A stretch of 64,000 nt of DNA from Escherichia coli (GTDB lineage Bacteria; Pseudomonadota; Gammaproteobacteria; Enterobacterales; Enterobacteriaceae), in assembly GCF_002854065.1 (NCBI RefSeq), contig NZ_CP024147.1, one strand, 5' to 3'. A program made the position numbers and the translations under genes. The notes under the pieces were generated by a model. That model did not search any database and had not been told where the DNA came from. It saw only the letters and a list, made by a program, of their open reading frames with translations. Positions 1-57,287 of the stretch are shown here, in pieces (the stretch's first letter is position 1; each line of letters opens with the position of its first letter).

Positions 1-796
1 CAATCACATCACCGCCGTGCGGGAAGTGATACAGCCGAGCGGCGGTCGTGGTGTGCTGACCGAGCCCCGAGTTGTCAGAGACATCGTTGGTCAGGATCTC
101 TTTTTGCAGCCCCAGCAACGCGTTCAGCAGGCTGGATTTACCAACGCCAGACTGCCCGGCAAAAATGCTGATGCGCCCGGTCAACGCCTCTTCCAGCGGT
201 TTTAGCCCATCCTGAGTATGGCTGGAAACCATCAATACGCGATAACCGATATTGCGGTAGATATCCATCTGCTCGTTGACGAACTCCATACCTTCGTCGT
301 CCAGCAGGTCTATCTTGTTGAGCACAATAATCGGCTCAATCTGCAAGGTTTCGCAGGCCACCAGATAACGGTCGATAATATTGAGCGACAGCTCCGGCAA
401 AATGGCGGAGACAATGACAATCTGGTCGATGTTGGCGGCAATAGGTTTCACGCCGTCGTAGAAATCCGGACGCGTCAACACTGAGGTGCGCTCATGCACC
501 GCTTCCACGATCCCTTTGACATTTACGCCTTCCGCCGCCGGTTTACCCGGACGCCAGACTACGCGGTCGCCGGTCACCAGCGAACGGATGGTACGGCGAA
601 TATTGCAGCGGTGAACGTCGCCATCGGCGGATTCCACATCAGCGTGCATACCAAAGCGGCTGATGACGATACCTTCATCAGGCTCGCCAAACAGATTGTC
701 GTCGTAGTCGGGCTTCTCCTTAGACGTTTTAAGACGACGCTGGTGATTGGCGTTCACGCGGCGCTGCTGGCCTTTGGAGAGTTTATTTTTACTCAA
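1..796 (-). CDS. rsgA: Ribosome small-subunit biogenesis GTPase RsgA (YjeQ); N-terminal ~265 codons, 3' end beyond window start
   Basis: Minus-strand frame open from window edge up to a TTG at 794-796; translation starts [42 protein letters not shown], recognisable RsgA N-terminus; divergent from orn. Confidence 0.85.
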
Positions 797-890
797 TCGT
801 ACAGACTCCTGGTCGCCCCTGATGGGCAAAACATCTATGATACACGCAATTGTGGATCAATATAGTCACTGTGAATGGGTGGAAAATAGC

Positions 891-1436
891 ATGAGTGCCA
901 ATGAAAACAACCTGATTTGGATCGATCTTGAGATGACCGGTCTGGATCCCGAGCGCGATCGCATTATTGAGATTGCCACGCTGGTGACCGATGCCAACCT
1001 GAATATTCTGGCAGAAGGGCCGACCATTGCAGTACACCAGTCCGATGAACAGCTGGCGCTGATGGATGACTGGAACGTGCGCACCCATACCGCCAGCGGG
1101 CTGGTAGAGCGCGTGAAAGCGAGCACGATGGGCGATCGTGAAGCTGAACTGGCAACGCTCGAATTCTTAAAACAGTGGGTGCCTGCGGGAAAATCGCCGA
1201 TTTGCGGTAACAGCATCGGCCAGGATCGTCGCTTCCTGTTTAAATACATGCCGGAGCTGGAAGCCTACTTCCACTACCGTTATCTCGATGTCAGCACCCT
1301 GAAAGAGCTGGCGCGCCGCTGGAAGCCGGAAATTCTGGATGGTTTTACCAAGCAGGGGACGCATCAGGCGATGGATGATATCCGTGAATCGGTGGCGGAG
1401 CTGGCTTACTACCGCGAGCATTTTATCAAGCTGTAA
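891..1436 (+). CDS. orn: Oligoribonuclease
   Basis: Track ORF 747..1436; Orn begins at internal ATG 891 ([29 protein letters not shown], DEDDh exonuclease); 181 aa. Confidence 0.95.
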
Positions 1437-1529
1437 AATTTTTCCTGGTCACGTAAGCGTCGGAATCCACTTGCGGCGGCGTGATTTTGACGCTAAATTG
1501 AACGCCTTGCTGATAATTTCAGCACTTGA

Positions 1530-1600
1530 GATAAAAACTCAAAAAAAATTTTTTAGGGGGGTTGCAGAGGGAAAGATTTCTCGTATAATGCGCCTCCCGT
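1530..1600 (+). promoter_or_regulatory. Candidate sigma70 promoter for glyVXY: A/T-rich upstream tract, TTGCAG (1562-1567), 16-bp spacer, TATAAT (1584-1589), GC-rich discriminator GCGCCTCCC
   Basis: Motifs read directly in sequence about 60 bp upstream of first tRNA; GC-rich discriminator typical of stringently controlled stable-RNA promoters. Confidence 0.5.
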
Positions 1601-1646
1601 AACGACGCAGAAATGCGAAAATTACGAAAGCAAAATTAAGTAGTAC

Positions 1647-1722
<76 letters not shown>

Positions 1723-1758
1723 AAATTTGAAAAGTGCTGCAAAGCACAGACCACCCAA

Positions 1759-1834
<76 letters not shown>

Positions 1835-1869
1835 AAATTTGAAAGTGCTGCAAAGCACAGACCACCCAA

Positions 1870-1945
<76 letters not shown>

Positions 1946-1959
1946 AATTCTTCTCTCAA

Positions 1960-2215
1960 TAAAATATCCACAGCGACGCGATGCGTTATTGCTGGTTTTT
2001 GTTGTCTCTGACAAACTCTTGTAAACAGAGTTATCCACAGCCTCAGGCCGTAATCTTAACTTCAAAGAAACTTCGCACGGTGAATAGTATTTTTTTAACC
2101 TATTGATAGATAATTTAAAAATTAAGATTTCGTTTTGTCGAGTCGATCACTTGACGATTTTATTCGTCTTGAATTGCAATGCGTTTTTATTTTTATTCAC
2201 AAGCTGTGGATGAAT
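1960..2215. promoter_or_regulatory. datA: datA-like DnaA-titration locus: DnaA boxes ATATCCACA (1964-1972), TTATCCACA (2031-2039), TTATTCACA (2193-2201), inverted TGTGGATGA (2205-2213); IHF-consensus site TATCAATAGGTTA on minus strand (2096-2108)
   Basis: 9-mers matching the TTATNCACA DnaA-box consensus and a WATCAANNNNTTR IHF match read in the non-coding interval between glyY and queG, where datA lies in K-12 as I recall. Confidence 0.55.
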
Positions 2216-3354
2216 CAGGCGTCACGCGGTAACCCTTTTTCAATTACCCGAACCAGACGCTGTTTTTTCGGCAATTGCACTTCGACTATGCACGCATTTC
2301 GCCTCTCGATTTGCTGCGCCATCGCCCACGCTATGTGCTCATCAAGAAGTGGGTGCTCACCTTTGCGACTCTCCAGCGCCGCCAGAATCGTTTCATCCCA
2401 GGGCGCATTGCCTAATGCCACGGCGATATTACGCAGCCAGCGCAGGTGACCTATACGGCGAATCGCCGAACCTTCCGTGACTTTTAAAAACTTCTCTTCG
2501 CTCCAGGCGAATAACTCAATGAGTTCCGGTGCGTGTAGCGGCTTACGCGGGCTGAAATCGTCTTCTGTAGTGAGTTGTGAATAGCGATTCCACGGGCAGA
2601 TAAGCTGGCAGTCATCGCAACCGTAAATACGGTTTCCCATTAACGGTCGCAACTCTTCCGGGATCGCCCCTTCCAGTTCGATGGTGAGATAAGAGATACA
2701 GCGGCGAGCATCGACGGTATATGGCTCGACGATGGCACCGGTCGGGCAAATCGTCATACAGGCCACGCATTTGCCGCATCCTTCCTCGACTGGTTGATCC
2801 ACGGGCAGCGGAATATCGACCAGCAATTCGCCTAAAAAGAAGAACGAACCGGCCTCGCGATTGAGGATAAGTGAGTGCTTACCTGTCCAGCCGAGCCCAG
2901 CTTTTTCAGCTAACGGGCGCTCGAGAATAGGCGCAGAATCGACAAACGGTCTAAAATTCAGCGAAACACAATGTTGCTGAATCATCTCGCCCAGCTTTTT
3001 GAGTCGGTTGCGCAGAAGTTTGTGATAGTCACGGCCCAGCGCATAACGGCTAACATAGCCGAGTTTGGGGTTTTTCAGCGTGCTGGCAAATGCGGCGTTA
3101 GCAGGAAGGTAATTCATCCGCACGCTGATCACGCGCAGCGTACCGGGCAATAACTCATGGGGGCGAGCGCGCAGCATACCGTGACGTGCCATCCAGTCCA
3201 TTTCGCCGTGGTATTGTTTGTCCAGCCATGCTTGCAGTTTGGGCTCGGACTCGCTGAGATCGGTATCGGTAATACCTACCTGCTGAAAGCCCAGTTCCAG
3301 CCCCCACTGTTTAATTTTTTGCGCTAACTGATTGAGATCGAGGGGCTCTGACAT
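2215..3354 (-). CDS. queG: Epoxyqueuosine reductase QueG (YjeS), 4Fe-4S / cobalamin enzyme
   Basis: Track ORF 2215..3462; QueG starts at internal Met (MSEPLDLNQLAQKIKQWGLELGFQQVGITD); two CxxCxxCxxxCP ferredoxin motifs; 379 aa. Confidence 0.93.
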   Translation of the reverse strand: MSEPLDLNQLAQKIKQWGLELGFQQVGITDTDLSESEPKLQAWLDKQYHGEMDWMARHGMLRARPHELLPGTLRVISVRMNYLPANAAFASTLKNPKLGYVSRYALGRDYHKLLRNRLKKLGEMIQQHCVSLNFRPFVDSAPILERPLAEKAGLGWTGKHSLILNREAGSFFFLGELLVDIPLPVDQPVEEGCGKCVACMTICPTGAIVEPYTVDARRCISYLTIELEGAIPEELRPLMGNRIYGCDDCQLICPWNRYSQLTTEDDFSPRKPLHAPELIELFAWSEEKFLKVTEGSAIRRIGHLRWLRNIAVALGNAPWDETILAALESRKGEHPLLDEHIAWAMAQQIERRNACIVEVQLPKKQRLVRVIEKGLPRDA

Positions 3355-3367
3355 GACGGACCATACA

Positions 3368-5333
<1,966 letters not shown>

Positions 5334-5351
5334 CCTTTGAAAGGTGGCGGG

Positions 5352-6680
5352 ATGATGTATCGCATCAGAAATTGGTTGGTAGCGACGTTGCTGCTGCTGT
5401 GCGCGCAGGTGGGTGCCGCGACGCTCTCTGATATTCAGGTTTCTAACGGCAATCAACAGGCGCGGATAACGTTGAGTTTTATTGGCGATCCTGATTATGC
5501 GTTTAGCCATCAAAGCAAACGCACCGTGGCGCTCGATATCAAACAAACGGGCGTGATTCAGGGACTGCCGTTGTTGTTCAGCGGTAATAATCTGGTGAAG
5601 GCGATTCGCTCCGGAACGCCTAAAGATGCACAAACGCTACGGCTGGTGGTCGATCTTACCGAAAACGGTAAAACCGAAGCGGTGAAGCGGCAGAATGGCA
5701 GCAATTACACTGTCGTCTTTACGATTAACGCAGATGTGCCACCGCCGCCGCCCGTGGTTGCGAAACGCGTTGAAACGCCTGCGGTTGTCGCACCGCGCGT
5801 CAGCGAACCGGCGCGCAATCCGTTTAAAACGGAAAGTAACCGCACTACGGGTGTTATCAGCAGTAATACGGTAACGCGTCCGGCAGCCCGCGCGACGGCT
5901 AACACTGGCGATAAAATTATCATCGCTATTGATGCCGGACACGGCGGTCAGGACCCTGGCGCTATCGGCCCCGGCGGTACGCGGGAGAAAAATGTCACCA
6001 TCGCCATTGCGCGTAAATTACGTACCTTGCTCAATGACGATCCGATGTTTAAGGGCGTTTTAACCCGTGACGGGGATTACTTTATCTCGGTGATGGGGCG
6101 CAGCGATGTGGCACGTAAGCAAAACGCCAATTTCCTCGTGTCGATTCACGCTGATGCCGCACCGAACCGCAGTGCGACTGGCGCTTCCGTATGGGTGCTC
6201 TCTAACCGTCGCGCCAACAGCGAAATGGCCAGCTGGCTGGAGCAGCACGAGAAACAGTCGGAGCTGCTGGGCGGGGCGGGTGATGTGCTGGCGAACAGTC
6301 AGTCTGACCCCTATTTAAGCCAGGCGGTGCTGGATTTACAGTTCGGTCATTCCCAGCGGGTAGGGTATGATGTAGCGACCAGTATGATCAGTCAGTTGCA
6401 ACGCATTGGCGAAATACATAAACGTCGGCCAGAACATGCCAGCCTTGGCGTTCTGCGTTCGCCGGATATCCCATCAGTACTGGTCGAAACCGGTTTTATC
6501 AGCAACAACAGCGAAGAACGTTTGCTGGCGAGCGACGATTACCAACAACAGCTGGCAGAAGCCATTTACAAAGGCCTGCGCAATTATTTCCTTGCGCATC
6601 CGATGCAATCTGCGCCGCAGGGGGCAACGGCACAAACGGCCAGTACGGTGACGACGCCAGATCGCACGCTGCCAAACTAA
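5352..6680 (+). CDS. amiB: N-acetylmuramoyl-L-alanine amidase AmiB
   Basis: Track ORF 5337..6680; signal peptide [23 protein letters not shown]; Amidase_3 domain ([14 protein letters not shown]); LysM-like C-terminus; internal Pro5 tract. Confidence 0.92.
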
Positions 6681-6689
6681 GGACGATTG

Positions 6690-8537
6690 ATGCCAATTCA
6701 GGTCTTACCGCCACAACTGGCGAACCAGATTGCCGCAGGTGAGGTGGTCGAGCGACCTGCGTCGGTAGTCAAAGAACTGGTGGAAAACAGCCTCGATGCA
6801 GGTGCGACGCGTATCGATATTGATATCGAACGCGGTGGGGCGAAACTTATCCGCATTCGTGATAACGGCTGCGGTATCAAAAAAGACGAGCTGGCGCTGG
6901 CGCTGGCGCGTCATGCCACCAGTAAAATCGCCTCTCTGGACGATCTCGAAGCCATTATCAGCCTGGGCTTTCGCGGTGAGGCGCTGGCGAGTATCAGTTC
7001 GGTTTCCCGCCTGACGCTCACTTCACGCACCGCAGAACAGCAGGAAGCCTGGCAGGCCTATGCCGAAGGGCGCGATATGGACGTGACGGTTAAACCGGCG
7101 GCGCATCCGGTGGGAACGACGCTGGAGGTACTGGACCTGTTCTACAACACCCCGGCGCGGCGCAAATTCCTGCGCACCGAGAAAACCGAATTTAACCATA
7201 TCGATGAAATCATCCGCCGCATCGCACTGGCGCGTTTCGACGTCACGATCAACCTGTCGCATAACGGCAAAATCGTACGCCAGTACCGCGCGGTGCCGGA
7301 AGGCGGGCAAAAAGAACGGCGCTTAGGCGCGATTTGTGGCACCGCTTTTCTCGAACAAGCGCTGGCGATTGAATGGCAACACGGCGATCTCACGCTGCGC
7401 GGCTGGGTGGCCGATCCAAATCACACCACGCCCGCACTGGCGGAAATTCAGTATTGCTACGTGAATGGTCGCATGATGCGCGATCGCCTGATCAATCACG
7501 CGATCCGCCAGGCCTGTGAAGACAAACTGGGGGCCGATCAGCAACCTGCATTTGTGTTGTATCTGGAGATCGACCCGCATCAGGTGGACGTCAACGTACA
7601 CCCCGCCAAACACGAAGTGCGTTTCCATCAGTCGCGTCTGGTGCATGATTTTATCTATCAGGGCGTGCTGAGCGTGCTACAACAGCAACTGGAAACGCCG
7701 CTACCGCTGGACGATGAACCCCAACCTGCACCGCGTCCCATTCCGGAAAACCGCGTGGCGGCGGGGCGCAATCACTTTGCAGAACCGGCAGCTCGTGAGC
7801 CGGTAGCTTCGCGCTACTCTCCTGCGCCCGCCTCAGGCAGTCGTCCGGCTGCCCCTTGGCCGAATGCGCAGCCAGGCTATCAGAAACAGCAAGGTGAAGT
7901 GTATCGCCAGCTTTTGCAAACGCCCGCGCCGATGCAAAAACCAAAAGCGCCGGAACCGCAGGAACCTGCACTTGCGGCGAACAGTCAGAGTTTTGGTCGG
8001 GTACTGACTATCGTCCATTCCGACTGTGCGTTGCTGGAGCGCGACGGCAACATTTCACTTTTAGCCTTGCCAGTGGCAGAACGTTGGCTGCGTCAGGCAC
8101 AATTGACGCCGGGTGAAGCGTCCGTTTGCGCCCAGCCGTTGCTGATTCCGTTGCGGCTAAAAGTTTCTGGCGAAGAAAAATCGGCATTAGAAAAAGCGCA
8201 GTCTGCCCTGGCGGAATTGGGTATTGAATTTCAGTCCGATGCGCAGCATGTGACCATCAGGGCCGTGCCTTTACCCTTACGCCAACAAAATTTACAAATC
8301 TTGATTCCTGAACTGATAGGCTACCTGGCGAAGCAGTCCGTATTCGAACCTGGCAATATTGCGCAGTGGATTGCACGAAATCTGATGAGCGAACATGCGC
8401 AGTGGTCAATGGCACAGGCCATAACCCTGCTGGCGGACGTGGAACGGTTATGTCCGCAACTTGTGAAAACGCCGCCGGGTGGTCTGTTACAATCTGTTGA
8501 TTTACATCCGGCGATAAAAGCCCTGAAAGATGAGTGA
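6690..8537 (+). CDS. mutL: DNA mismatch repair protein MutL
   Basis: 615-aa ORF; GHKL ATPase motifs ([16 protein letters not shown]); begins [20 protein letters not shown]. Confidence 0.96.
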
Positions 8538-9480
8538 TATCAGTAAGGCGAGCCTGCCTAAGGCGATTTTTTTGATGGGGCCGACGGCCTCCGGTAAAAC
8601 GGCGTTAGCCATTGAGCTGCGTAAAATTTTACCAGTAGAGTTGATAAGCGTTGATTCTGCCCTTATTTACAAAGGGATGGATATCGGGACGGCGAAGCCG
8701 AACGCTGAAGAGTTACTCGCCGCGCCGCACCGATTGCTGGATATTCGCGATCCGTCGCAGGCTTACTCGGCTGCTGATTTTCGCCGCGATGCGCTGGCGG
8801 AGATGGCCGATATCACCGCGGCGGGGCGGATCCCACTGTTAGTGGGCGGTACGATGTTGTATTTCAAGGCATTGCTGGAAGGGTTGTCGCCGCTACCGTC
8901 GGCAGACCCGGAAGTGCGGGCCAGAATTGAGCAACAGGCGGCAGAGCAAGGTTGGGAGTCATTGCATCGTCAACTTCAGGAGATCGATCCGGTTGCGGCA
9001 GCAAGGATTCATCCAAATGATCCACAAAGGCTTTCCCGGGCACTGGAAGTTTTTTTCATTTCGGGTAAAACTTTAACGGAACTGACGCAAACGTCAGGAG
9101 ACGCTCTACCGTATCAGGTGCATCAGTTCGCCATCGCCCCGGCGAGCCGTGAACTGCTCCATCAACGCATTGAGCAGCGTTTTCATCAGATGTTGGCTTC
9201 AGGTTTTGAAGCAGAAGTCCGGGCGCTTTTTGCCCGAGGAGATTTGCATACGGACTTGCCTTCCATTCGTTGCGTGGGTTATCGCCAGATGTGGTCTTAC
9301 CTTGAAGGCGAAATCTCATACGATGAAATGGTTTATCGAGGTGTTTGCGCCACGAGACAGTTGGCGAAGCGGCAGATAACCTGGCTGCGTGGTTGGGAAG
9401 GGGTTCACTGGCTTGATAGTGAAAAACCAGAACAGGCGCGTGACGAAGTATTACAGGTTGTTGGTGCTATCGCAGGCTGA
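8530..9480 (+). CDS. miaA: tRNA dimethylallyltransferase MiaA
   Basis: 316-aa ORF; P-loop GPTASGKT; overlaps mutL stop by 8 nt. Confidence 0.96.
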
Positions 9481-9553
9481 ATGTGTACAATTGAGACGTA
9501 TCGTGCGCAATTTTTTCAGAATCGAAAGGTTCAAAGTACAAATAAGCATATAA

Positions 9554-9895
<342 letters not shown>

Positions 9896-9950
9896 CACGG
9901 GGAGCCAGCGATCCTGCGTTCCCCGCTGATCTATTTAGAGGGTTATACGC

Positions 9951-11231
9951 TTGTTTGACCGTTATGATGCTGGTGAGCAGGCGGTACTGGTACACATCTA
10001 TTTTACGCAAGACAAAGATATGGAAGACCTCCAGGAGTTTGAATCTCTGGTCTCTTCCGCCGGTGTCGAAGCATTGCAGGTGATTACCGGTAGCCGTAAA
10101 GCGCCGCACCCAAAGTATTTTGTAGGTGAAGGTAAAGCAGTTGAAATTGCGGAAGCTGTCAAAGCGACGGGTGCTTCGGTCGTTCTTTTTGACCATGCCC
10201 TGAGCCCGGCGCAAGAGCGTAACCTGGAGCGTTTGTGCGAGTGTCGTGTTATCGACCGCACCGGCCTTATTTTAGATATTTTCGCCCAACGTGCGCGTAC
10301 CCATGAGGGTAAGTTGCAGGTTGAGCTGGCGCAGCTGCGCCATCTGGCTACGCGCCTGGTGCGTGGCTGGACCCACCTTGAAAGACAGAAAGGCGGGATT
10401 GGTTTGCGTGGTCCGGGTGAAACCCAGCTCGAAACCGACCGTCGTTTGTTGCGTAATCGCATCGTGCAGATACAGTCGCGCCTGGAAAGAGTTGAAAAGC
10501 AGCGTGAGCAGGGGCGGCAATCGCGTATCAAAGCCGACGTTCCTACTGTTTCGCTGGTGGGATATACCAACGCCGGTAAATCTACCCTTTTCAATCGCAT
10601 CACCGAAGCGCGGGTCTACGCGGCAGACCAGTTGTTTGCCACCCTCGACCCGACGTTGCGGCGTATTGACGTTGCAGATGTCGGTGAAACCGTACTTGCA
10701 GATACCGTAGGGTTTATTCGCCACCTGCCGCACGATCTGGTGGCAGCATTTAAAGCCACGTTACAAGAGACGCGGCAAGCCACATTACTGCTGCACGTCA
10801 TTGATGCGGCGGATGTGCGTGTACAAGAAAACATCGAAGCGGTGAATACGGTTCTTGAAGAGATCGACGCTCACGAGATCCCAACCCTGCTGGTGATGAA
10901 CAAGATCGATATGCTGGAAGATTTCGAACCGCGTATTGATCGGGACGAAGAGAACAAACCGATCCGTGTCTGGCTTTCCGCACAGACCGGAGCGGGGATA
11001 CCACAGCTTTTTCAGGCTTTGACGGAGCGGCTTTCCGGCGAGGTGGCGCAGCATACATTGCGTCTGCCACCGCAGGAAGGGCGTCTGAGAAGTCGTTTTT
11101 ATCAGCTTCAGGCAATAGAAAAAGAGTGGATGGAGGAGGACGGCAGCGTAAGTCTGCAAGTTCGTATGCCGATCGTTGACTGGCGTCGCCTCTGTAAACA
11201 AGAACCGGCGTTGATCGATTACCTGATCTAA
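9951..11231 (+). CDS. hflX: Ribosome-associated GTPase HflX
   Basis: 426-aa ORF; G-domain motifs [18 protein letters not shown]. Confidence 0.96.
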
Positions 11232-15932: not shown

Positions 15933-18374
15933 ATGTCACAAGATCCTTTCCAGGAACGCGAAGCTGAAAAATACGCGAATCCCATCCCTAGTCGGGAATT
16001 TATCCTCGAACATTTAACCAAACGTGAAAAACCGGCCAGCCGTGATGAGCTGGCGGTAGAACTGCACATTGAAGGCGAAGAGCAGCTTGAAGGCCTGCGT
16101 CGCCGCCTGCGCGCGATGGAGCGCGATGGTCAACTGGTCTTCACTCGTCGTCAGTGCTATGCGCTGCCGGAACGCCTCGACCTGGTGAAAGGTACCGTTA
16201 TTGGCCACCGTGATGGCTACGGCTTTCTGCGGGTTGAAGGGCGTAAAGATGATTTGTATCTCTCCAGCGAGCAGATGAAAACCTGCATTCATGGCGATCA
16301 GGTGCTGGCGCAGCCGCTGGGCGCTGACCGTAAAGGTCGTCGTGAAGCGCGTATTGTCCGCGTACTGGTGCCAAAAACCAGCCAGATTGTTGGTCGCTAC
16401 TTTACCGAAGCGGGCGTCGGCTTTGTGGTTCCTGACGATAGCCGTCTGAGCTTCGATATCTTAATCCCGCCCGATCAGATCATGGGCGCGCGGATGGGCT
16501 TTGTGGTCGTAGTCGAACTGACTCAGCGTCCGACTCGCCGCACCAAAGCGGTGGGTAAAATCGTCGAAGTCCTTGGCGATAATATGGGCACCGGCATGGC
16601 GGTTGATATCGCTCTGCGTACCCATGAAATTCCGTACATCTGGCCGCAGGCTGTTGAGCAACAGGTTGCCGGGCTGAAAGAAGAAGTGCCGGAAGAAGCA
16701 AAAGCGGGCCGTGTTGATCTGCGCGATTTACCGCTGGTCACCATTGATGGCGAAGACGCCCGTGACTTTGACGATGCAGTTTACTGCGAGAAAAAACGCG
16801 GCGGCGGCTGGCGTTTATGGGTCGCGATTGCTGACGTCAGCTACTATGTGCGTCCGCCAACGCCGCTGGACAGAGAAGCGCGTAACCGTGGCACGTCGGT
16901 GTACTTCCCTTCGCAGGTTATCCCGATGCTGCCGGAAGTGCTCTCTAACGGTCTGTGCTCGCTCAATCCGCAGGTAGACCGCCTGTGTATGGTGTGCGAG
17001 ATGACGGTTTCGTCGAAAGGCCGCCTGACGGGCTACAAATTCTACGAAGCGGTGATGAGCTCTCACGCGCGTCTGACCTACACCAAAGTCTGGCATATTC
17101 TGCAGGGCGATCAGGATCTGCGCGAGCAGTACGCTCCGCTGGTTAAGCATCTCGAAGAGTTGCATAACCTCTATAAAGTGCTGGATAAAGCCCGTGAAGA
17201 ACGTGGCGGGATCTCATTTGAGAGCGAAGAAGCGAAGTTTATTTTCAACGCTGAACGCCGTATTGAGCGTATCGAACAGACTCAGCGTAACGACGCGCAC
17301 AAGTTAATTGAAGAGTGCATGATTCTGGCGAATATCTCGGCGGCGCGTTTCGTTGAGAAAGCCAAAGAACCGGCACTGTTCCGTATTCACGACAAGCCGA
17401 GCACCGAAGCGATTACCTCTTTCCGTTCAGTGCTGGCAGAGCTGGGGCTGGAACTGCCGGGCGGTAACAAGCCGGAACCGCGCGACTACGCGGAGCTGCT
17501 GGAGTCGGTTGCCGACCGTCCTGATGCAGAAATGCTGCAAACCATGCTGCTGCGCTCGATGAAACAGGCGATTTACGATCCGGAAAACCGTGGTCACTTT
17601 GGCCTGGCATTGCAGTCCTATGCGCACTTTACTTCGCCGATTCGTCGTTATCCTGACCTGACGCTGCACCGCGCCATTAAGTATCTGTCGGCGAAAGAGC
17701 AGGGGCATCAGGGCAACACCACTGAAACCGGTGGCTACCATTATTCGATGGAAGAGATGCTGCAACTGGGTCAGCACTGTTCGATGGCGGAACGTCGTGC
17801 CGACGAAGCAACGCGCGATGTGGCTGACTGGCTGAAGTGTGACTTCATGCTCGACCAGGTAGGTAACGTCTTTAAAGGCGTAATTTCCAGCGTCACTGGC
17901 TTTGGCTTCTTCGTCCGTCTGGACGACTTGTTCATTGATGGGCTGGTCCATGTCTCTTCGCTGGACAATGACTACTATCGCTTTGACCAGGTAGGGCAAC
18001 GCCTGATGGGTGAATCCAGCGGCCAGACTTATCGCCTGGGCGATCGCGTGGAAGTTCGCGTCGAAGCGGTTAATATGGACGAGCGCAAAATCGACTTTAG
18101 CCTGATCTCCAGCGAACGCGCACCGCGCAACGTCGGTAAAACGGCGCGCGAGAAAGCGAAAAAAGGCGATGCAGGTAAAAAAGGCGGCAAGCGTCGTCAG
18201 GTCGGTAAAAAGGTAAACTTTGAGCCAGACAGCGCCTTCCGCGGTGAGAAAAAAACGAAGCCGAAAGCAGCGAAGAAAGACGCGAGAAAAGCGAAAAAGC
18301 CATCGGCGAAAACGCAGAAAATAGCTGCAGCGACCAAAGCGAAGCGTGCGGCGAAGAAAAAAGTGGCAGAGTGA
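15933..18374 (+). CDS. rnr: Ribonuclease R (RNB family 3'-5' exoribonuclease) with Lys-rich C-terminal tail
   Basis: Track ORF 15891..18374; start at [23 protein letters not shown]; RNB and S1 domains; 813 aa. Confidence 0.96.
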
Positions 18375-18432
18375 TCATTACCCTCTTCAAACAGAAGAGG
18401 GTTAGATTGCTGACAAAATGCGCTTTGTTCAT

Positions 18433-18530
18433 GCCGGATGCGGCGTGAACGCCTTATCCGGCCTACATAATCACGCAAATTCAATATATTGCAGGGATCA
18501 TGTAGACCGGATAAACGTAGTGCATCAGGC
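18433..18530. repeat. REP/BIME palindromic elements
   Basis: GCCGGATGCGGCGTGAACGCCTTATCCGGCCTAC and inverted partner TAGACCGGATAAACGTAGTGCATCAGGC. Confidence 0.8.
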
Positions 18531-30987: not shown

Positions 30988-31451
30988 ATGAAATTACGTG
31001 ATTCGCTGGCGGAGAATAAATCCATCCGCCTGCAGGCTGAAGCAGAGACATGGCAGGACGCAGTGAAAATCGGCGTTGACCTGCTGGTGCGGCGGATGTT
31101 GTCGAGCCGCGTTACTACCAGGCGATTCTGGATGCGGTTGAACAGCACGGTCCGTACTTTGTGCTCGCACCAGGCCTGGCAATGCCGCACGGTCGCCCGG
31201 AAGAGGGCGTTAAGAAAACCGGTTTTGCGCTAGTGACGCTGAAAAAGCCGCTGGAGTTCAACCACGAAGATAATGACCCTGTGGATATCCTCATCACCAT
31301 GGCGGCGGTCGATGCCAACACGCACCAGGAAGTAGGCATCATGCAGATCGTCAACCTGTTTGAAGATGAAGAAAATTTCGACCGTTTACGTGCCTGCCGT
31401 ACCGAGCAGGAAGTACTGGATCTCATTGACCGCACCAACGCGGCAGCTTAA
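30988..31451 (+). pseudogene. ulaC: ulaC (ascorbate PTS EIIA) disrupted by a 1-nt deletion near 31089
   Basis: Track splits it into ORF 30988..31233 (correct for 34 aa [34 protein letters not shown], then out of frame) and ORF 31161..31451 (UlaC C-terminus [18 protein letters not shown]...DRTNAAA); total span 464 nt, not a multiple of 3. Confidence 0.85.
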
Positions 31452-32979: not shown

Positions 32980-33665
32980 TGCAAAAGCTAAAACAGCAGG
33001 TATTTGAAGCCAACATGGAGCTGCCGCGCTACGGGCTGGTGACCTTTACCTGGGGCAACGTCAGCGCTATCGACCGCGAACGCGGGCTGGTGGTGATCAA
33101 GCCCAGCGGCGTTGCCTACGAAACCATGAAAGCGGCCGATATGGTGGTGGTTGATATGAGCGGCAAGGTGGTGGAAGGGGAGTATCGCCCATCTTCCGAC
33201 ACTGCGACGCATCTCGAACTCTACCGTCGTTACCCGTCGCTTGGCGGCATTGTCCATACCCACTCCACTCATGCCACCGCATGGGCGCAGGCGGGGCTGG
33301 CGATCCCGGCGTTAGGCACCACGCACGCTGACTACTTCTTTGGTGATATCCCGTGTACGCGTGGATTAAGCGAAGAAGAGGTGCAGGGTGAGTATGAACT
33401 GAACACTGGCAAAGTGATTATCGAAACGCTGGGCAACGCCGAGCCGCTGCATACGCCGGGAATTGTGGTGTATCAGCACGGACCGTTCGCCTGGGGGAAA
33501 GATGCCCACGACGCGGTGCATAACGCGGTAGTGATGGAAGAAGTGGCGAAAATGGCGTGGATTGCGCGCAGTATTAATCCACAACTCAATCACATCGACA
33601 GCTTCCTGATGAATAAACACTTCATGCGTAAGCACGGCCCTAACGCTTATTACGGGCAGAAGTAA
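32979..33665 (+). CDS. ulaF: L-ribulose-5-phosphate 4-epimerase UlaF
   Basis: Track ORF 32931..33665; start [21 protein letters not shown] overlapping ulaE stop (TAATG); 228 aa. Confidence 0.95.
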
Positions 33666-33672
33666 AACACGC

Positions 33673-33755
33673 GCTGCGGAAATTTCCTTCCTCGGGAGAT
33701 AACTGGTCTAATTCCGCAGCCGTTTTTCAAAAAAAGCCCCCTGCGAAGGGGGCAA
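33673..33755. terminator. Back-to-back terminators between convergent ulaF (+) and yjfY (-)
   Basis: Plus: GCTGCGGAAATTTCC...GGTCTAATTCCGCAGC then CGTTTTTC; minus: GCCCCCTTCGCAGGGGGC followed by T7. Confidence 0.65.
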
Positions 33756-33793
33756 AGCAAACTATGGCAATGTTTCGTTGGTTATACCTGGTG

Positions 33794-34069
33794 CTAGCGA
33801 TAAATATCCGCGCTGGCGTGCATATTGCCGTTACTCCCCGGTTCCCGCATCAGAATTACGTGGTAGTACGTTGCGCCTTGCGCATCTGTTTCTTCATTTA
33901 ATGCCTGACGTGCTTCGCTTTCAGTGGCGAAATTATGATTGATATAAATCACGCCTAAGCTTTGCACATCGTCCATATTTCTGGCCTGGTGGTTATTAAT
34001 TTCAATGGCTGCCCATGTATTTGCACTTAGCAAAAGCACAGCCAGAAGGGCTAAAACTCGACTGAACAT
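33794..34069 (-). CDS. yjfY: Periplasmic DUF1471 (YhcN family) protein YjfY
   Basis: Track ORF 33794..34138; start MFSRVLALLAVLLLSANTWAA; 91 aa. Confidence 0.85.
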   Translation of the reverse strand: MFSRVLALLAVLLLSANTWAAIEINNHQARNMDDVQSLGVIYINHNFATESEARQALNEETDAQGATYYHVILMREPGSNGNMHASADIYR

Positions 34070-34377
34070 AGATACCTCCTCGACGGCTGACTTTGTGTGC
34101 TCTCCTCTGTGATGATCTTCTGATTTAATTTTAATCAATGATAAAGAAGTTGATGGTGACCATTTCTGATGCAGTTGTTCGAAAAAACACTGTGACGGAA
34201 TGTGATGAACTTCAAATCAGCGGTTTAGAGGTTATTTGCGAAAGGGGAGATTTATTTCTGCTCCGCCCTTGAGTTTAGCGGGGTATGTCAGTACTATAAC
34301 GCGTCATTTTTCAGCCGACCTTTAACACGTTCCTTGCCTCCCCGGGATTCGGCTGACCCAGACAGGAGGCTGAATAA

Positions 34378-34791
<414 letters not shown>

Positions 34792-34797
34792 TTTCTG

Positions 34798-35344
<547 letters not shown>

Positions 35345-35373
35345 TCGGTCACGGTCCATTAATACGACTTTGA

Positions 35374-35835
<462 letters not shown>

Positions 35836-35857
35836 TTCGTTATTCAACGAGACGTAA

Positions 35858-35890
35858 AAACGCCGACCAGTGGTCGGCGTTTTGCTTTAT
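35858..35890 (+). terminator. Rho-independent terminator of rpsF-priB-rpsR-rplI operon
   Basis: CGCCGACC-AGTG-GTCGGCG hairpin followed by TTTTGCTTT. Confidence 0.8.
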
Positions 35891-35936
35891 AGCGAAAGCG
35901 TTACAACTGGTAGTATAACGCTCTGATATCTATTAA

Positions 35937-37214
35937 TTAGCTTGTCGCTAACTGTACTTGCGGTTCTTCATCTTTAACTTTGATAAGCGTCCACAGCGCA
36001 ATGGCGCCAATAATGTCAAAGAAAGCCAGGGCAATAAAGAACGGCGCGAAGCCGATAATGTGAACGAATGCCCCGATAAACAGGTTGAAAATCAACTGAC
36101 CGCTCCACGCACAGGCTCCTGCCATACCCACTGCGGTAGCTACTTCGTCTTTTTTGAACAGATCGCCACCCAGAGTTGCTGCTACAGTAGAAAGACATTG
36201 ATGCGAGAACGCGCCAATACTAATCAGTAATACGGCAATGTAGGGATTTTCGACAATACTCACCAGGCCAATCGTCATCATAATGACGGCTGCAATAGTG
36301 AAGGTAATTCTTCGTGAGTTAATTAAACTCACGCCGCGATCGTGGAAGAACTTCGCGACAAAACCACTGGCTAAACAGCCGAGATCGCCCAGCAGGAAAG
36401 GCAGCCAGACGAACATGGCAATTTCTTTCAGGCTAAAATGCAGCGTTTCGACGAAGAAAATCGGCACCCAGAAGTTAATGGTTCCCCATGCCGGGTCTGC
36501 GAGAAAACGCGCGATGCCAATCCCCCAGAAATTACGTTGGCTGAGGATATGCTTGATTGACGTTTTTTCTTTCTTATCTGTTTTAAGATGCTGTTCTTGC
36601 CCTGATTCAATATAGTGGCGCTCTTCATCAGAAAGGCGTTTGGCATCTTTCGGATCTTTATAACAAAAGAACCAAAATAAAGCCGCGAGCAAAGCAAGGC
36701 TACCTGAAACAATAAACGCAAATTGCCAGCTATGAAACATAATGCACCAGGCAATCAACGGTGGAGCAAGCATCGCGCCGAGTGAGGTGCCCATATTGAA
36801 AACACCTGTCGCCACGCCACGCTCTTTTGCCGGGAACCATGTTGATGCGGTTTTTACACCCGCCGGAATTGCCGACGCTTCGCTGAAACCCATCAGGGCG
36901 CGCATAAATGCCAGACCTGACCACGTTCCGGTTAGTGCATGGCCCATTGTCGCCAGGCCCCAAATTGCGGCACATATCGCAAAACTTAACTTCAGACCCA
37001 CGGTATCAATAAAGAAGCCCATTACCGGTTGCCCTAATGTATAGGCCAACTGGAATGCACTGACAATCCATGAATATTGCTCTTTAGTTATTCCGGTTGT
37101 CTCCATAATCGTTGGAGCCGCAATACCTAACGCCGTTCTGTCCAGATAATTGATTACAGTGATAAAGCATACGAGGGCAATCATATGCCACCGGTAATTC
37201 GGTAATGACTCCAA
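35937..37214 (-). CDS. MFS transporter, anion:cation symporter (ACS) family, ExuT/GudP-like; 5' end abuts IS1 (track start codon TTG lies inside the IS1 terminus; first native in-frame ATG gives MIALVCF...)
   Basis: 425-aa ORF with ~12 predicted TM segments and ACS-family sequence character (resemblance to ExuT from memory); not at this position in K-12 as I recall. Confidence 0.75.
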   Translation of the reverse strand: MESLPNYRWHMIALVCFITVINYLDRTALGIAAPTIMETTGITKEQYSWIVSAFQLAYTLGQPVMGFFIDTVGLKLSFAICAAIWGLATMGHALTGTWSGLAFMRALMGFSEASAIPAGVKTASTWFPAKERGVATGVFNMGTSLGAMLAPPLIAWCIMFHSWQFAFIVSGSLALLAALFWFFCYKDPKDAKRLSDEERHYIESGQEQHLKTDKKEKTSIKHILSQRNFWGIGIARFLADPAWGTINFWVPIFFVETLHFSLKEIAMFVWLPFLLGDLGCLASGFVAKFFHDRGVSLINSRRITFTIAAVIMMTIGLVSIVENPYIAVLLISIGAFSHQCLSTVAATLGGDLFKKDEVATAVGMAGACAWSGQLIFNLFIGAFVHIIGFAPFFIALAFFDIIGAIALWTLIKVKDEEPQVQLATS

Positions 37215-37215
37215 C

Positions 37216-37719
37216 TTATTGATAGTGTTTTATGTTCAGATAATGCCCGATGACTTTGTCATGCAGCTCCACCGATTTTGAGAACGACAGCGACTTCCGT
37301 CCCAGCCGTGCCAGGTGCTGCCTCAGATTCAGGTTATGCCGCTCAATTCGCTGCGTATATCGCTTGCTGATTACGTGCAGCTTTCCCTTCAGGCGGGATT
37401 CATACAGCGGCCAGCCATCCGTCATCCATATCACCACGTCAAAGGGTGACAGCAGGCTCATAAGACGCCCCAGCGTCGCCATAGTGCGTTCACCGAATAC
37501 GTGCGCAACAACCGTCTTCCGGAGCCTGTCATACGCGTAAAACAGCCAGCGCTGGCGCGATTTAGCCCCGACGTATCCCCACTGTTCGTCCATTTCCGCG
37601 CAGACGATGACGTCACTGCCCGGCTGTATGCGCGAGGTTACCGACTGCGGCCTGAGTTTTTTAAATGGCGGAAAATCGTGTTGAGGCCAACGCCCATAAT
37701 GCGGGCGGTTGCCCGGCAT
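37216..37719 (-). CDS. insB: IS1 transposase InsB (expressed as InsAB' by -1 frameshift)
   Basis: 167-aa [61 protein letters not shown]. Confidence 0.95.
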
Positions 37720-37913
37720 CCAACGCCATTCATGGCCATATCAATGATTTTCTGGTGCGTACCGGGTTGAGAAGCGGTGTAAGTGAACTGCAGTTGCCAT
37801 GTTTTACGGCAGTGAGAGCAGAGATAGCGCTGATGTCCGGCAGTGCTTTTGCCGTTACGCACCACCCCGTCAGTAGCTGAACAGGAGGGACAGCTGATAG
37901 AAACAGAAGCCAC
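37638..37913 (-). CDS. insA: IS1 protein InsA (transposition inhibitor / N-terminal part of transposase)
   Basis: 91-aa [94 protein letters not shown]. Confidence 0.95.
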
Positions 37914-37971
37914 TGGAGCACCTCAAAAACACCATCATACACTAAATCAGTAAGTTGGCAGCATCACCCAT

Positions 37972-38610
37972 CTACTGCGCACGAATAAAACTGCCATCCG
38001 GCTGGCGGGTAAACAGGACCTGTTGATTATTCCCCGTATCAATAGTTAAGCCCGTCACCACGCCGCTGGCGTTCTGGCGGATTTTCACCATCTGCCCGTT
38101 TTGCAAATTACTCAGCGGCTTACCCGCGCCTTCTACCTGCGCCATTGCATAGACATCGGTAGCGGGCAGTCCGTGGTCGCGGAACAGCTGCGCCATCGTT
38201 TTACCGGGTTCGACACGGTAAGAGCGCCATTGATTATCAATTCCGCTATCTGGCTGGAATGGTTGTGTTTGGGTAGTTTGCGGCTGTTCTTCTGGCTGGC
38301 CTTCCTGTATAGGTTCTGGAGCGACCGGAGCCACCTGATCAGGATCATTTTGTGGTGTGACTAATTGCGCCCGCAGCTGTTCTTCTGTCGGCGGTTGTGA
38401 TTGCGACTGAATATCTAACTGCGCTTCACGCGTCACCACCGGCGCGTTGGGCGTATCATCAGATGGAAGCAGAAATCCGACCACCAATATAATGGCGGCA
38501 ATAATGATCCCCCGACGATGCATCGGCGGCAGCGGGTCCATGAAGCGAAAATTGTCCGGCGCGTGCCAGACTTTCTCCAGGGTTGGTTTTAGTTCAAAGC
38601 GCCCGGGCAT
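37972..38610 (-). CDS. ytfB: Cell-division protein YtfB (OapA / LysM-like domain)
   Basis: Track ORF 37972..38646; start MPGRFELKPTLEKVWHAPDNFRFMD; Pro/Gln-rich linker; stop codon 3 nt from IS1 end. Confidence 0.9.
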   Translation of the reverse strand: MPGRFELKPTLEKVWHAPDNFRFMDPLPPMHRRGIIIAAIILVVGFLLPSDDTPNAPVVTREAQLDIQSQSQPPTEEQLRAQLVTPQNDPDQVAPVAPEPIQEGQPEEQPQTTQTQPFQPDSGIDNQWRSYRVEPGKTMAQLFRDHGLPATDVYAMAQVEGAGKPLSNLQNGQMVKIRQNASGVVTGLTIDTGNNQQVLFTRQPDGSFIRAQ

Positions 38611-44511: not shown

Positions 44512-46484
44512 TTACTTACTCAAATCCACCTGATAAATCGCAAACCCGATATCATCGGTCGCGACTTTATTCATCGGATATTGCCCTTTCTCTTTAATAA
44601 ACGCTGCGGCTTTATCTGACGGGGAAGTTTCGAAACGGATATCCAGTTTCTTATCGCCGGCTATCGGTGCTAAACGCCAGTTGTTATCTGCCGCCGGGTG
44701 AATTTCCCCCGCACGTTTCGACTCATCAGCAATCCACGCTGCCAGCACCGAGCGGTTCTCATCCGGTGAAGCAAAAGCGATATGGCTGTCGCCCGTACCG
44801 GCAAATTTGCCGCCGTAAGCGCGATAGTTATTGGTGGCAACGAGGAACATGGCGTTCGGATCAATCGGCTTGCCGTTAAAGGTCAGGTTCTTAATCCTTT
44901 CCGCATTGGCATTAACCATCTGGCACTCGCCGTCATAACGGGCAGGCTGGGTAACATCAATCTGATAATTCACACCATCAATCACATCAAAGTTATAGGT
45001 GCGGAAACCATCCCAGTTGATGAGTGACTGTGGTTTCGTGTTGTCAGGATCAATCTGGTTAAACTGTCCGGCGGAGCACTCCAGCCACTCTTTCACCTCT
45101 TTACCGCTGGCTTTCACCACAATCAGCGTATTGGGGTAGAGATAAAGATCGGCGGCATTACGGAAGGTCAACTGGCCTTTTTCCACCTCCACATAGCTTG
45201 CCGGATCATTTTTGCGACCACCAACTTTAAACGGTGCAGCAGCTGAAAGCACCGGCAGTTTTGCCAGATCCGGATCGTCCTGAATGTAATGCTCGACATA
45301 CGCTTTTTGCGCGTTGTTCACCACCTGCACGGTCGGATCGTCCTGCACCAGCGCCAGATAGCTATACATATTGTCGGCGGATTTACCGATTGGCTTGCTG
45401 ACGAACTGGCGTGTGGCATCGTGATCGGCTTTGAGTGTTTCTACCAGCTTGCTGTCTTCCGCCGCGAGGGATTTTTTATTGGCGATGTCGTAAATCGGCC
45501 GTGCTTCCGCTTTCGCCTGCGTCACCTGCCATTTACCGCTGTTATTACTGAGTTGTAAGTCGACCACCCCAAGATGATCGCCCCACATGCCCGGCATTAC
45601 CGCCGGAACACCATTCAGCGTGCCTTTCGCGATATCAGCCCCTTCGATACGATATCAGCCCCTTCGATATCAGCAAAATCTTTACCTGGGAAAACGGCGT
45701 GAGCATGGCCAAACATAATGGCGTTAACGCCAGGAATTTCACTGAGGTAATAAACTGAGTTTTCCGCCATCACTTTATACGGATCGGCAGATAGCCCGGA
45801 ATGCGCCAGAACGACAACGACATCGGCACCTTTCTCGCGCATTTCAGGCACGTATTTGCGCACGGTTTCGGTAATATCATTCACCGTCACTTTTCCGGAT
45901 AAATTAGCTTTATCCCAGCCCATGATTTGCGGCGGCACGACGCCAATATAGCCAATCTTCAGCGTCTGTTTTTTTCCGTCTTTATCGACCACTTCGGTAT
46001 CTTTAATTAAATACGGTGTAAACATTGGCTGTTTGGTTCTGGCGTCAATGACGTTGGCATTTACATAAGGGAATTTCGCTCCCGCCAACGCATTTTTCAG
46101 GTAATCCAGACCGTAGTTAAATTCATGATTGCCGAGTGTACCGACCGTATAATCCAGCGTATTCAGCGCCTTATAAACCGGATGAACATCACCTGCTTTT
46201 AATCCTTTCGCCGATATGTAATCGGCCAGCGGACTCCCCTGAATCAAATCGCCGTTATCGACCAGTACGCTGTTTTTCACTTCATTGCGGGCATCGTTAA
46301 TCAGGCTTGCCGTACGTACCAGTCCGAATTTTTCCGTGGCGGTGTCTTTGTAATAATCGAAATCCATCATGTTGCTATGCAGATCAGTGGTTTCCATGAT
46401 ACGTAGATCGACCGTCGCTGCATTCACACTGGCGGCAATCAGCGTGGCCAGGAGCGTTGCGCTAAACTTAATCATCAGGGACAT
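44512..46484 (-). pseudogene. cpdB: cpdB (periplasmic 2',3'-cyclic-nucleotide 2'-phosphodiesterase / 3'-nucleotidase) split by a 20-bp tandem duplication
   Basis: N-terminal ORF 45615..46484 (signal peptide [36 protein letters not shown], ends ...[19 protein letters not shown]) and C-terminal ORF 44512..45597 ([15 protein letters not shown]...) are adjacent and co-directional; removing one 20-bp copy rejoins them in frame. Confidence 0.85.
45630..45669. repeat. Perfect 20-bp tandem duplication CGATATCAGCCCCTTCGATA x2 inside cpdB
   Basis: Read directly: 45630-45649 and 45650-45669 identical. Confidence 0.9.
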
Positions 46485-46664: not shown

Positions 46665-47405
46665 ATGTTAGATCAAGTATGCCAGCTTGCACGGAATGCA
46701 GGCGATGCCATTATGCAGGTCTACGACGGGACGAAACCGATGGACGTCGTCAGCAAAGCGGACAATTCTCCGGTAACGGCAGCGGATATTGCCGCTCACA
46801 CCGTTATCATGGACGGTTTACGTACGCTGACACCGGAGATTCCGGTCCTTTCTGAAGAAGATCCTCCCGGTTGGGAAGTCCGTCAGCACTGGCAGCGTTA
46901 CTGGCTGGTGGACCCGCTGGATGGCACTAAAGAGTTTATTAAACGTAATGGCGAATTCACCGTTAACATTGCGCTCATTGACCATGGCAAACCGATTTTA
47001 GGTGTGGTGTATGCGCCGGTAATGAACGTAATGTACAGCGCGGCAGAAGGCAAGGCCTGGAAAGAAGAGTGCGGTGTGCGCAAGCAGATTCAGGTCCGCG
47101 ATGCGCGCCCGCCGCTGGTGGTTATCAGCCGTTCCCATGCAGATGCGGAGCTGAAAGAGTATCTGCAACAGCTTGGCGAACATCAGACCACGTCCATCGG
47201 CTCTTCGCTGAAATTCTGCCTGGTGGCGGAAGGGCAGGCGCAGCTGTACCCGCGCTTCGGACCAACGAATATTTGGGATACCGCCGCTGGTCATGCTGTG
47301 GCTGCAGCTGCCGGAGCGCACGTTCATGACTGGCAGGGTAAACCGCTGGATTACACTCCGCGCGAGTCGTTCCTGAATCCGGGATTCAGAGTGTCTATTT
47401 ATTAA
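46665..47405 (+). CDS. cysQ: 3'(2'),5'-bisphosphate nucleotidase CysQ
   Basis: 246-aa [25 protein letters not shown]; inositol-monophosphatase motifs (WLVDPLDGT). Confidence 0.95.
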
Positions 47406-47952
47406 TTAATTTATGCAGCAGGTCCATCACTTGCTGCACCTCTTCCTGTGTGAGCGCCCCGTCTTTGGCCCATTGCACGCGACCATCCTTATCCAGCACC
47501 ACTACAGCGGAACTTTCTTCATCCAGCTGCCAGGCACCGCGCGCGACGCCATTGCTATCGACAATAAACTGCGACCAGGGATAAAGCTTTTTATTACTCT
47601 CCAGACTGCTGCGCACAAACATCCCTGAACCCGGAATCGCGTCGTCGGTGTTAACAATGGTGGTGGTCTGGTAGCGATCGTGCGGTAACTTCGCTGATTT
47701 AATCGCTTCAATCAGCGTCGCGTTTTTCTCTTTTGCAGAGGTGCGACCAGCAATATGTTGCAGTACTCGCACTTTTCCCACTAACTGTGCGCTGTTCCAG
47801 GTTTTGTAGCTAAACTGATCTTTATCAAGCACCAACTCGCCTCGATCGGTAATGCCAATCGGCGGCACTCGCTGACCGGTTTCGAACTGATGTGCGGAAG
47901 CCATCATCGGCAACAGCAGGCAGGTGAGTGCCAGAATCTTGCTTAGGGTCAT
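47395..47952 (-). CDS. ytfJ: Periplasmic protein YtfJ (DUF1107)
   Basis: 185-aa ORF with signal peptide [20 protein letters not shown]; convergent 11-nt overlap with cysQ. Confidence 0.9.
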
Positions 47953-56947: not shown

Positions 56948-57287
56948 CGATGTATCTCGCGATTTTTTTTTGTAACTTTTCCATCTTTTGCTTTTCTCTC
57001 CGAGCCGCTTTCCATATCTGCAATCGCATAAAAAACTCTGCTGGCGTTCACAAATGTGCAGGGGTAAAACGGGGGCACGCTTTGAACGGTGAGTATGAGT
57101 GAGGTCGGCTAACTTCCAGCAAGTGGCTATGAACAGCAAAATGGTGGTCGGGTTTGCTTGTTCTTACCGTTCAAGCCTTGCAACCGCTGAGAATAATGAT
57201 GGTGGAATAGAGAGTTTATTTATCGCGGGCATAAAAAAACCCTTACTAACCGAAGCCCGGCGTTCAGGGTTATTGCGCTAGAAGAAC

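Follow-up and report, generated by a model that had tools for sequence, protein, structure and literature searches.

Deletion formation by IS1 has been described for the gal region (Reif and Saedler 1975, as cited in PMC8860574) and the mechanisms of IS1 deletion have been reviewed (PMC9330008). Adjacent deletions as in the gal region retain a complete IS1, which is not surrounded by a target-site duplication, and the edge of the deleted segment coincides with an IS end. Two transporters with known substrates serve as a reference for the gene affected in the present case, namely the hexuronate:H+ symporter ExuT of Escherichia coli K-12 (b3093) and the D-galactonate:H+ symporter DgoT (PDB 6E9N/6E9O). 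We have analyzed a stretch of 64,000 nt of E. coli DNA (contig NZ_CP024147.1, hereafter the window) in which a gene for an ExuT-like transporter directly follows an IS1 copy. We consider it likely that a very recent IS1-associated deletion has left its scar here, in an ordinary strain of E. coli, and that the transporter gene is a stranded remnant with weak or no expression.

On the minus strand, ytfB is followed by IS1, by an open reading frame (ORF) for the transporter, by a hairpin and then by the convergent rplI gene. The features are listed below.

35856-35883, no strand assigned: G+C-rich hairpin with flanking A and T runs (AAAACGCCGACCACTGGTCGGCGTTTTT), read directly in the sequence, between the convergent rplI and transporter genes
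35937-37214, minus strand: hybrid ORF of 425 codons with a TTG start, made up of 14 nt from IS1 and 1,264 nt of a native MFS transporter gene (ExuT-like, ACS-type)
35937-37200, minus strand: native portion of the transporter gene, which begins with the third base of codon 5 and includes the stop codon, with DNA 100% identical to strain 97.3
37182-37192, minus strand: GGTGG (37192-37188) and the internal ATG of Met11 (37184-37182), with a spacing of 3 nt and a duplex of -5.1 kcal/mol
37201-37214, minus strand: right-end stretch of IS1, TTG GAG TCA TTA CC, an in-frame substitute for the native ATG AAT AAA ATA AA
37201-37968, minus strand: complete IS1 of 768 bp, IS1B type, with insA (37638-37913) and insB (37216-37719)
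37934-37961, minus strand: promoter-like site in the left end of IS1 (CTGCCA, 16 nt, TATGAT), from a simple scan
37969-37974, minus strand: deletion junction, with the ytfB stop codon TAG (37974-37972) and 3 nt (37971-37969), after which the left end of IS1 begins

The right end of IS1 (...GTTGGAGTCATTACC / ...CAATAAGTTGGAGTCATTACC) terminates at 37201. The original prediction that the start of the ORF has been overwritten by an IS1 terminus was correct, as the TTG (37214-37212) and the next 11 nt (GAG TCA TTA CC) are IS1-derived. Native DNA is found from 37200 onward (G AAT TAC CGG TGG CAT ATG...). It had also been stated that the ORF is co-directional with insB and directly downstream of it, which is the case: insA, insB and the ORF are all on the minus strand and a single nucleotide separates the insB stop codon from the TTG (TAA-G-TTG). 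An exact look-up of the 425-residue hybrid product returned no record, and the version of 415 residues matched only intact or differently interrupted loci. At the other end of the gene, the hairpin at 35856-35883, which is probably a bidirectional terminator, is shared with K-12, where homology extends to window position 35888; it was not listed by a simple terminator scan.

The IS1 copy in the window is 100% identical over 770 nt to a copy from LR-27 which is annotated as IS1B transposase, and it has the length of 768 bp, the terminal inverted repeats and the insA and insB' frames by which IS1 is defined. Simple IS1 insertions are recognized by a target-site duplication of 8-9 bp. In the same transporter gene, such insertions are found in UTI89 (9 bp, GTATGCTTT) and in LR-27 (8 bp, GGTAATGG). 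The IS1 in the window has no target-site duplication, its flanks being ...GCAGTAGATG and GAATTACCG..., and so it does not represent a simple insertion.

The nearest complete genome, E. coli O68:H12 strain 97.3, carries the whole genomic island between ytfB and rplI and has no IS1 at this position. It aligns to the window as follows.

Window 33227-37200, strain 97.3 locus 1-3974: 100% identity, no mismatches in 3,974 nt
Window 37201-37968 (IS1), strain 97.3 locus 3975-10969: IS1 replaces 6,995 bp
Window 37969-58400, strain 97.3 locus 10970-31401: 99.966% identity, 7 mismatches in 20,432 nt

Both alignments stop exactly at the IS1 ends, so that the missing segment begins precisely at an IS end when the window is compared to an otherwise identical genome, as in an adjacent deletion. 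The same end-points are obtained with BLR(DE3), from which 6,996 bp are missing. A metagenome contig which is 99.95% identical also gives these end-points and runs from ytfB into the genes for a TetR regulator and an SDR protein. Of the TetR gene, only the last 20 nt have survived the deletion; the promoter region, the genes for five enzymes and a spacer of 92 nt are gone, and the transporter gene has lost 14 nt from its 5′ end. Near-identity of the flanks to strain 97.3, together with the lack of a target-site duplication, indicates a very recent IS1-associated deletion.

The locus thus shares with the adjacent deletions in the gal region the complete retained IS1, the lack of a target-site duplication and the deletion edge at the IS end. 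It differs from them in that no precursor insertion was found, and recombination between two IS1 copies would give the same product. No IS1 is found at the first or at the second junction in 5,426 complete E. coli genomes. A search of JGI metagenome contigs with each junction as an exact 26-mer gave no match either, which is weak evidence since assemblies break at IS copies. The arrangement in the window is known from one assembly, and in the collections searched it occurs in this strain only.

The following history would account for these data. The ancestral state would have been that of strain 97.3, with ytfB and rplI parted by an island which consists of a TetR gene and a divergent six-gene operon. 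IS1 would have inserted either at the junction of ytfB with the TetR gene or into the transporter gene, near its AT-rich 5′ end. A segment of 6,995 bp would then have been removed, either by intramolecular transposition of IS1 (adjacent deletion) or by recombination between two direct IS1 copies. This would have left a single IS1 without target duplication, and an ORF which is complete from residue 6 and, by chance, in frame with a TTG in the right end of IS1. Any expression would depend on transcripts that read through from ytfB and from the promoter in IS1, and translation would begin at Met11 rather than at the TTG, which lacks a Shine-Dalgarno sequence. Because the event is so recent, the intactness of the ORF reflects a lack of time for decay and is not evidence of selection. 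The event is a textbook IS1 deletion, i.e. ordinary IS-driven gene loss.

To define the extent of the damage, the native gene was rebuilt from LR-27 by removal of its IS1 and of one copy of the duplication. The native protein has 425 residues (RefSeq WP_001033615.1, found in BLR(DE3), which is E. coli B, and in strain 97.3) and starts with MNKIKNYRWHMIALV. Compared to its N-terminus MNKIKNYRW, residues 1-5 (MNKIK) are changed to (M)ESLP in the window and residues 6-425 are identical. The loss of native sequence is restricted to 14 nt, from Met1 to the second base of codon 5, which have been swapped in frame for 14 nt of IS1. It had been proposed that both the native N-terminus and the promoter are gone; this holds for the promoter, which was deleted together with the operon, and not for the N-terminus, of which just these few codons are affected.

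We aligned 17 homologues, including ExuT, all of which start with M-[KRN]-x-[IL]-x-x-x-R-W-x-M-I, and R8, W9 and M11 are invariant. They begin five residues upstream of the IS1 junction, and the native-only part begins with residue 6. The alignment also corrects the assignment of MIALVCF as the first native start, as this methionine is the invariant internal Met11. Gene callers are split over the start in intact loci, some choosing Met11 (415 residues) and others MNKIK (425 residues). The comparison supports the 425-residue form with MNKIK as the true native start, and the lost native ATG is preceded by AAGG at a spacing of 7 nt. For the TTG at 37214, no Shine-Dalgarno sequence is found (anti-Shine-Dalgarno duplex of -0.3 kcal/mol), and it is thus unsupported as a genuine start. 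The GGTGG which had been noted ahead of the MIALVCF methionine codon is indeed there (37192-37188 before 37184-37182). In the window, the ATG of Met11 is the most plausible translation start and would lead to a product of 415 residues.

The original prediction had called for a look at the intact locus in other genomes, and this identified a TetR-regulated operon of six genes between ytfB and rplI. The native 5′ region of the transporter gene occurs in 1,691 of the 5,426 complete E. coli genomes (about 31%), and in 1,664 at least 80% of the query is covered in one place. Carriers include B/BL21-type strains, Nissle 1917 and UTI89. In the layout of the island, ytfB is followed by a TetR gene, convergent to and overlapping with it, by the divergent operon and by the convergent rplI. 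The operon is TetR-controlled and codes, in this order, for an SDR protein (annotated as "3-ketoacyl-ACP reductase"), a xylose-isomerase-like TIM barrel protein, an enoyl-CoA hydratase, a fused family-I CoA-transferase, a flavoprotein of 690 residues with a FAD_binding_2 domain, and the MFS transporter. In all loci examined, the transporter gene is the last gene of the operon and is convergent with rplI. The statement that partner genes are absent from the window is accurate; they were part of the 6,995 bp that were deleted, and the sister strain 97.3 still has them.

The five enzyme genes are located at 4081-10130 of the strain 97.3 locus (3159-9208 in another intact locus). A perfect inverted repeat of 8 bp (ATCAACCA-N6-TGGTTGAT) in the TetR-SDR intergenic region (10198-10219 of the strain 97.3 locus) is a candidate TetR operator and has been deleted in the window. 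What lies between the transporter gene and rplI varies. The two genes are direct neighbours in B-type strains and in the window, a hipBA-like toxin-antitoxin pair separates them in UTI89-type strains, and yjfZ (DUF2686) is found there in others; examples are located at 6099-7861 and 17690-18484 in two records. As to the substrate of the operon, NCBIfam returned generic names only. The CoA-transferase is FadX-like and fused. For the flavoprotein, there is no close solved relative, L-aspartate oxidase being the best match (E=6e-9), and the TIM barrel protein matches only uncharacterised structural-genomics entries (3QC0, 3JU2) and 7VPF among solved structures. A literature search for 7VPF, SMc04130 and yjfZ/ytfA found nothing relevant to the substrate of the operon.

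The island is frequently targeted by IS1. In unrelated E. coli strains, IS1 has inserted close to where the transporter gene starts, at six or more different positions within a few hundred bases. Several further positions are located in the TetR gene, again in unrelated strains. At both targets, the positions differ and both orientations occur. Examples are the copies at 9240-10007, 7178-7945 and about 3190-3960 in three records. Both the transporter gene, at its AT-rich 5′ end, and the neighbouring TetR gene have taken many independent hits, which looks like a local IS1 hot spot. IS1 prefers AT-rich DNA, and the recurrent targeting of the AT-rich 5′ region fits this preference.

Window positions 35889-37968 have no counterpart in K-12, where yjfZ and the pseudogene ytfA are found instead. 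The gene is thus not part of the K-12 layout, as had been claimed, and K-12 has no copy of it at this position. A comparison of a K-12 segment (3588-4100) with the strain 97.3 locus (9940-10993) revealed relics of the island. K-12 ytfA corresponds to the 3′ 407 nt of the island TetR gene (97.5% identity), and a fragment of 102 nt from the SDR gene has also been kept (82% identity). The K-12 remnants (ytfA and yjfZ) occupy the same rplI-ytfB site and result from loss of the same island. However, K-12 has lost the transporter gene and retained a piece of the regulator gene, the window has lost the regulator and retained the transporter, and there is no IS1 at the K-12 site. The K-12 relics and the scar in the window thus indicate that the island was lost at least twice, by different routes. 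Judging from these alignments, the K-12 layout is a decayed version of the island and not a neutral reference, and the ytfA pseudogene of K-12 is explained as a relic of the island TetR gene.

The rest of the window is collinear with K-12 positions 4390714-4455834 at about 97-98% identity. Compared to K-12, ytfI is absent (window 47403-47410), and so is the chpS-chpB toxin-antitoxin pair, in place of which there are about 130 bp (window 57071-57200). The gene for 2′,3′-cyclic-nucleotide phosphodiesterase, cpdB (window 44512-46484, minus strand), carries a frameshift which leaves two ORFs of 289 and 361 residues; the same allele is annotated as "frameshifted" in O68:H12 strain 97.3, and three JGI metagenome contigs have it as well. 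The gene for the ascorbate PTS IIA component, ulaC (window 30988-31451, plus strand), also appears to be frameshifted, as the K-12 protein aligns in two frames (ORFs of 81 and 96 residues). These two frameshifts, along with the lack of both junctions in complete E. coli genomes, had raised the suspicion that the DNA comes from Shigella. This was rejected, as the flanks are 100% and 99.97% identical to O68:H12 strain 97.3, which has the cpdB frameshift in common with the window.

In the annotation, the transporter is already an MFS protein, and it is uncharacterised. Pfam domain MFS_1 is detected at residues 15-327 (E=3.7e-55) and 301-418 (E=1.4e-07), and these matches, together with the structure alignment to DgoT, show the MFS fold of two six-helix halves. 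The family considered was the MFS anion:cation symporter (ACS) family (TCDB 2.A.1.14, NCBIfam TIGR00893). TIGR00893 ("2A0114") is the best NCBIfam model (E=6e-94, 315.1 bits), the next model scoring 168 bits; with 315.1 bits the transporter stays below the curated cut-off of 395 bits, which K-12 ExuT exceeds (426.8 bits). K-12 ExuT can be aligned over residues 1-423 without truncation (48% identity), and it has the same N-terminal pattern (M-x-K-I-K-x-x-R-W-x-M-I-A-L-V), the same MFS_1 architecture and the same best model. The assignment as an ACS-family, ExuT-like MFS permease is therefore confirmed by Pfam, by TIGR00893 and by the full-length similarity to ExuT. The protein is, however, a paralogue and not an orthologue of ExuT: similarity is below orthologue level, and in E. 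coli the gene is not linked to uxaCA and exuR and is instead the last one in a CoA-transferase/hydratase/flavoprotein operon.

Among solved structures, DgoT is closest (E=1.5e-40, residues 5-410 aligned). The YxDR motif in TM1 of DgoT and the glutamate in TM4 (D46, R47 and E133) correspond to D25, R26 and E112 of the transporter. YLDR (D25, R26) aligns with YVDR of DgoT and fsEA (E112) with ifEA, and the position of the glutamate is marked by the E133Q mutant entry 6E9O. Across the 17 homologues, R26 is invariant, E112 is conserved in at least 90%, and D25 is found in most, but K-12 ExuT has a threonine at this position. From what is known for DgoT, we take these three residues to have roles in proton and carboxylate coupling. 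The relationship to DgoT is distant, and the residues compared are those for coupling.

Orthologues with 80-85% identity occur in Providencia, Edwardsiella, Yersinia rohdei, Pantoea ananatis, Orbus and Gilliamella. In Gilliamella apis, the orthologue (81-83%) is encoded after uxuB-like and uxaC genes and next to uxuA and a GntR regulator gene, and this linkage makes a uronate-like substrate plausible. In Pantoea and Edwardsiella, the gene stands alone. The transporter is an ExuT-family paralogue which most likely imports a sugar acid, as far as can be judged from its sequence relationships. If the protein is made, it would couple the import of a sugar acid or a similar organic anion to that of protons.

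A simple scan detected a single sigma-70-like site between ytfB and the transporter gene, which is the one in the left end of IS1 (37934-37961). Between insB and the ORF, the scan revealed neither a sigma-70-like site nor a fusion promoter. Thus, any expression must come from transcripts started at the ytfB or IS1 promoters, and read-through expression from IS1 and ytfB is possible.

Under an alternative view, which we regard as unlikely, this route would have turned ytfB, IS1 and the transporter gene into a new unit, freed from TetR and expressed constitutively by read-through. Translation would start from Met11 or from the IS1 TTG, and the protein would import a hexuronate-like acid which the core Uxa/Uxu pathway can use. 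A model of operon formation by insertion, deletion and excision (IDE) has been published (PMC8860574), and host transcription has been reported to enter co-directional IS1 copies (PMC12428005), so that upstream transcription would feed the element. All three units face the same way; IS1 begins 3 nt after the stop codon of ytfB, a single nucleotide separates the stop codon of insB from the TTG, and no intrinsic terminator was detected by a simple scan of the stretch from ytfB to the ORF. The ORF itself is unbroken and its frame matches that of the TTG in the IS1 end, and the Gilliamella orthologue is encoded beside uxaC, uxuB and uxuA. However, since the flank is 100% identical in the sister genome, intactness is uninformative on selection, and an in-frame fusion is expected by chance in one of three cases. 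The TTG lacks a Shine-Dalgarno sequence, and GGTGG stands just 3 nt from the ATG. IS1 is classically known for its strong polarity, and the larger part of insB is untranslated. In addition, the arrangement occurs in no other genome among the 5,426 complete ones from E. coli. Quite improbable, too, is that the locus is a natural snapshot of the insertion-plus-deletion stage of the IDE model, with an ExuT-family transporter placed behind the cell-division gene ytfB and expressed by read-through, using either the in-frame IS1 start or termination-reinitiation at the end of insB (TAA-G-TTG). If this were true, the strain would have constitutive uptake of a uronate-like acid.

Another explanation would be an error of assembly: in reality, the operon would be bracketed by two direct IS1 copies, or there would be a simple insertion, and 7 kb would have been dropped when the assembler collapsed this structure. 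IS1 is a multicopy element in related strains, with up to at least 40 pieces per record, and the structure is unique among the 5,426 genomes. We consider such an error very unlikely, because each junction is clean and coincides to the base with an IS1 terminus, and because even a collapse needs IS1 copies at exactly the two positions, neither of which was seen in the genomes or metagenome contigs searched. Short-read assemblers usually break at IS copies rather than joining across them.

That IS1 acts as a mobile promoter, with a -35 element in its right end and a -10 element in the flank driving the transporter gene, is hardly credible: fusion promoters are documented (Table 1 of PMC9330008, including IS1 upstream of blaTEM) and the IS1 end and the flank do contain TTGGAG and TATGAT, but their spacing is 23 nt instead of 16-18 nt, the scan found no promoter-like site there, and, as TATGAT overlaps the ATG of Met11, a transcript from it would start inside the coding sequence and lack the Met11 start.

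In summary, a very recent IS1-associated deletion with a stranded transporter remnant is the reading which we prefer. The case illustrates, cleanly and to the base, the pruning of accessory catabolic islands by IS1 in E. coli, and it has little import beyond this strain. Such deletions can leave a complete-looking ORF which is then called as a normal MFS transporter by annotation pipelines. For an uncharacterised ExuT paralogue, the native start, the operon partners and the regulator are now defined, and the operon with its CoA-transferase, hydratase and flavoprotein poses a more interesting question than the stranded transporter itself.
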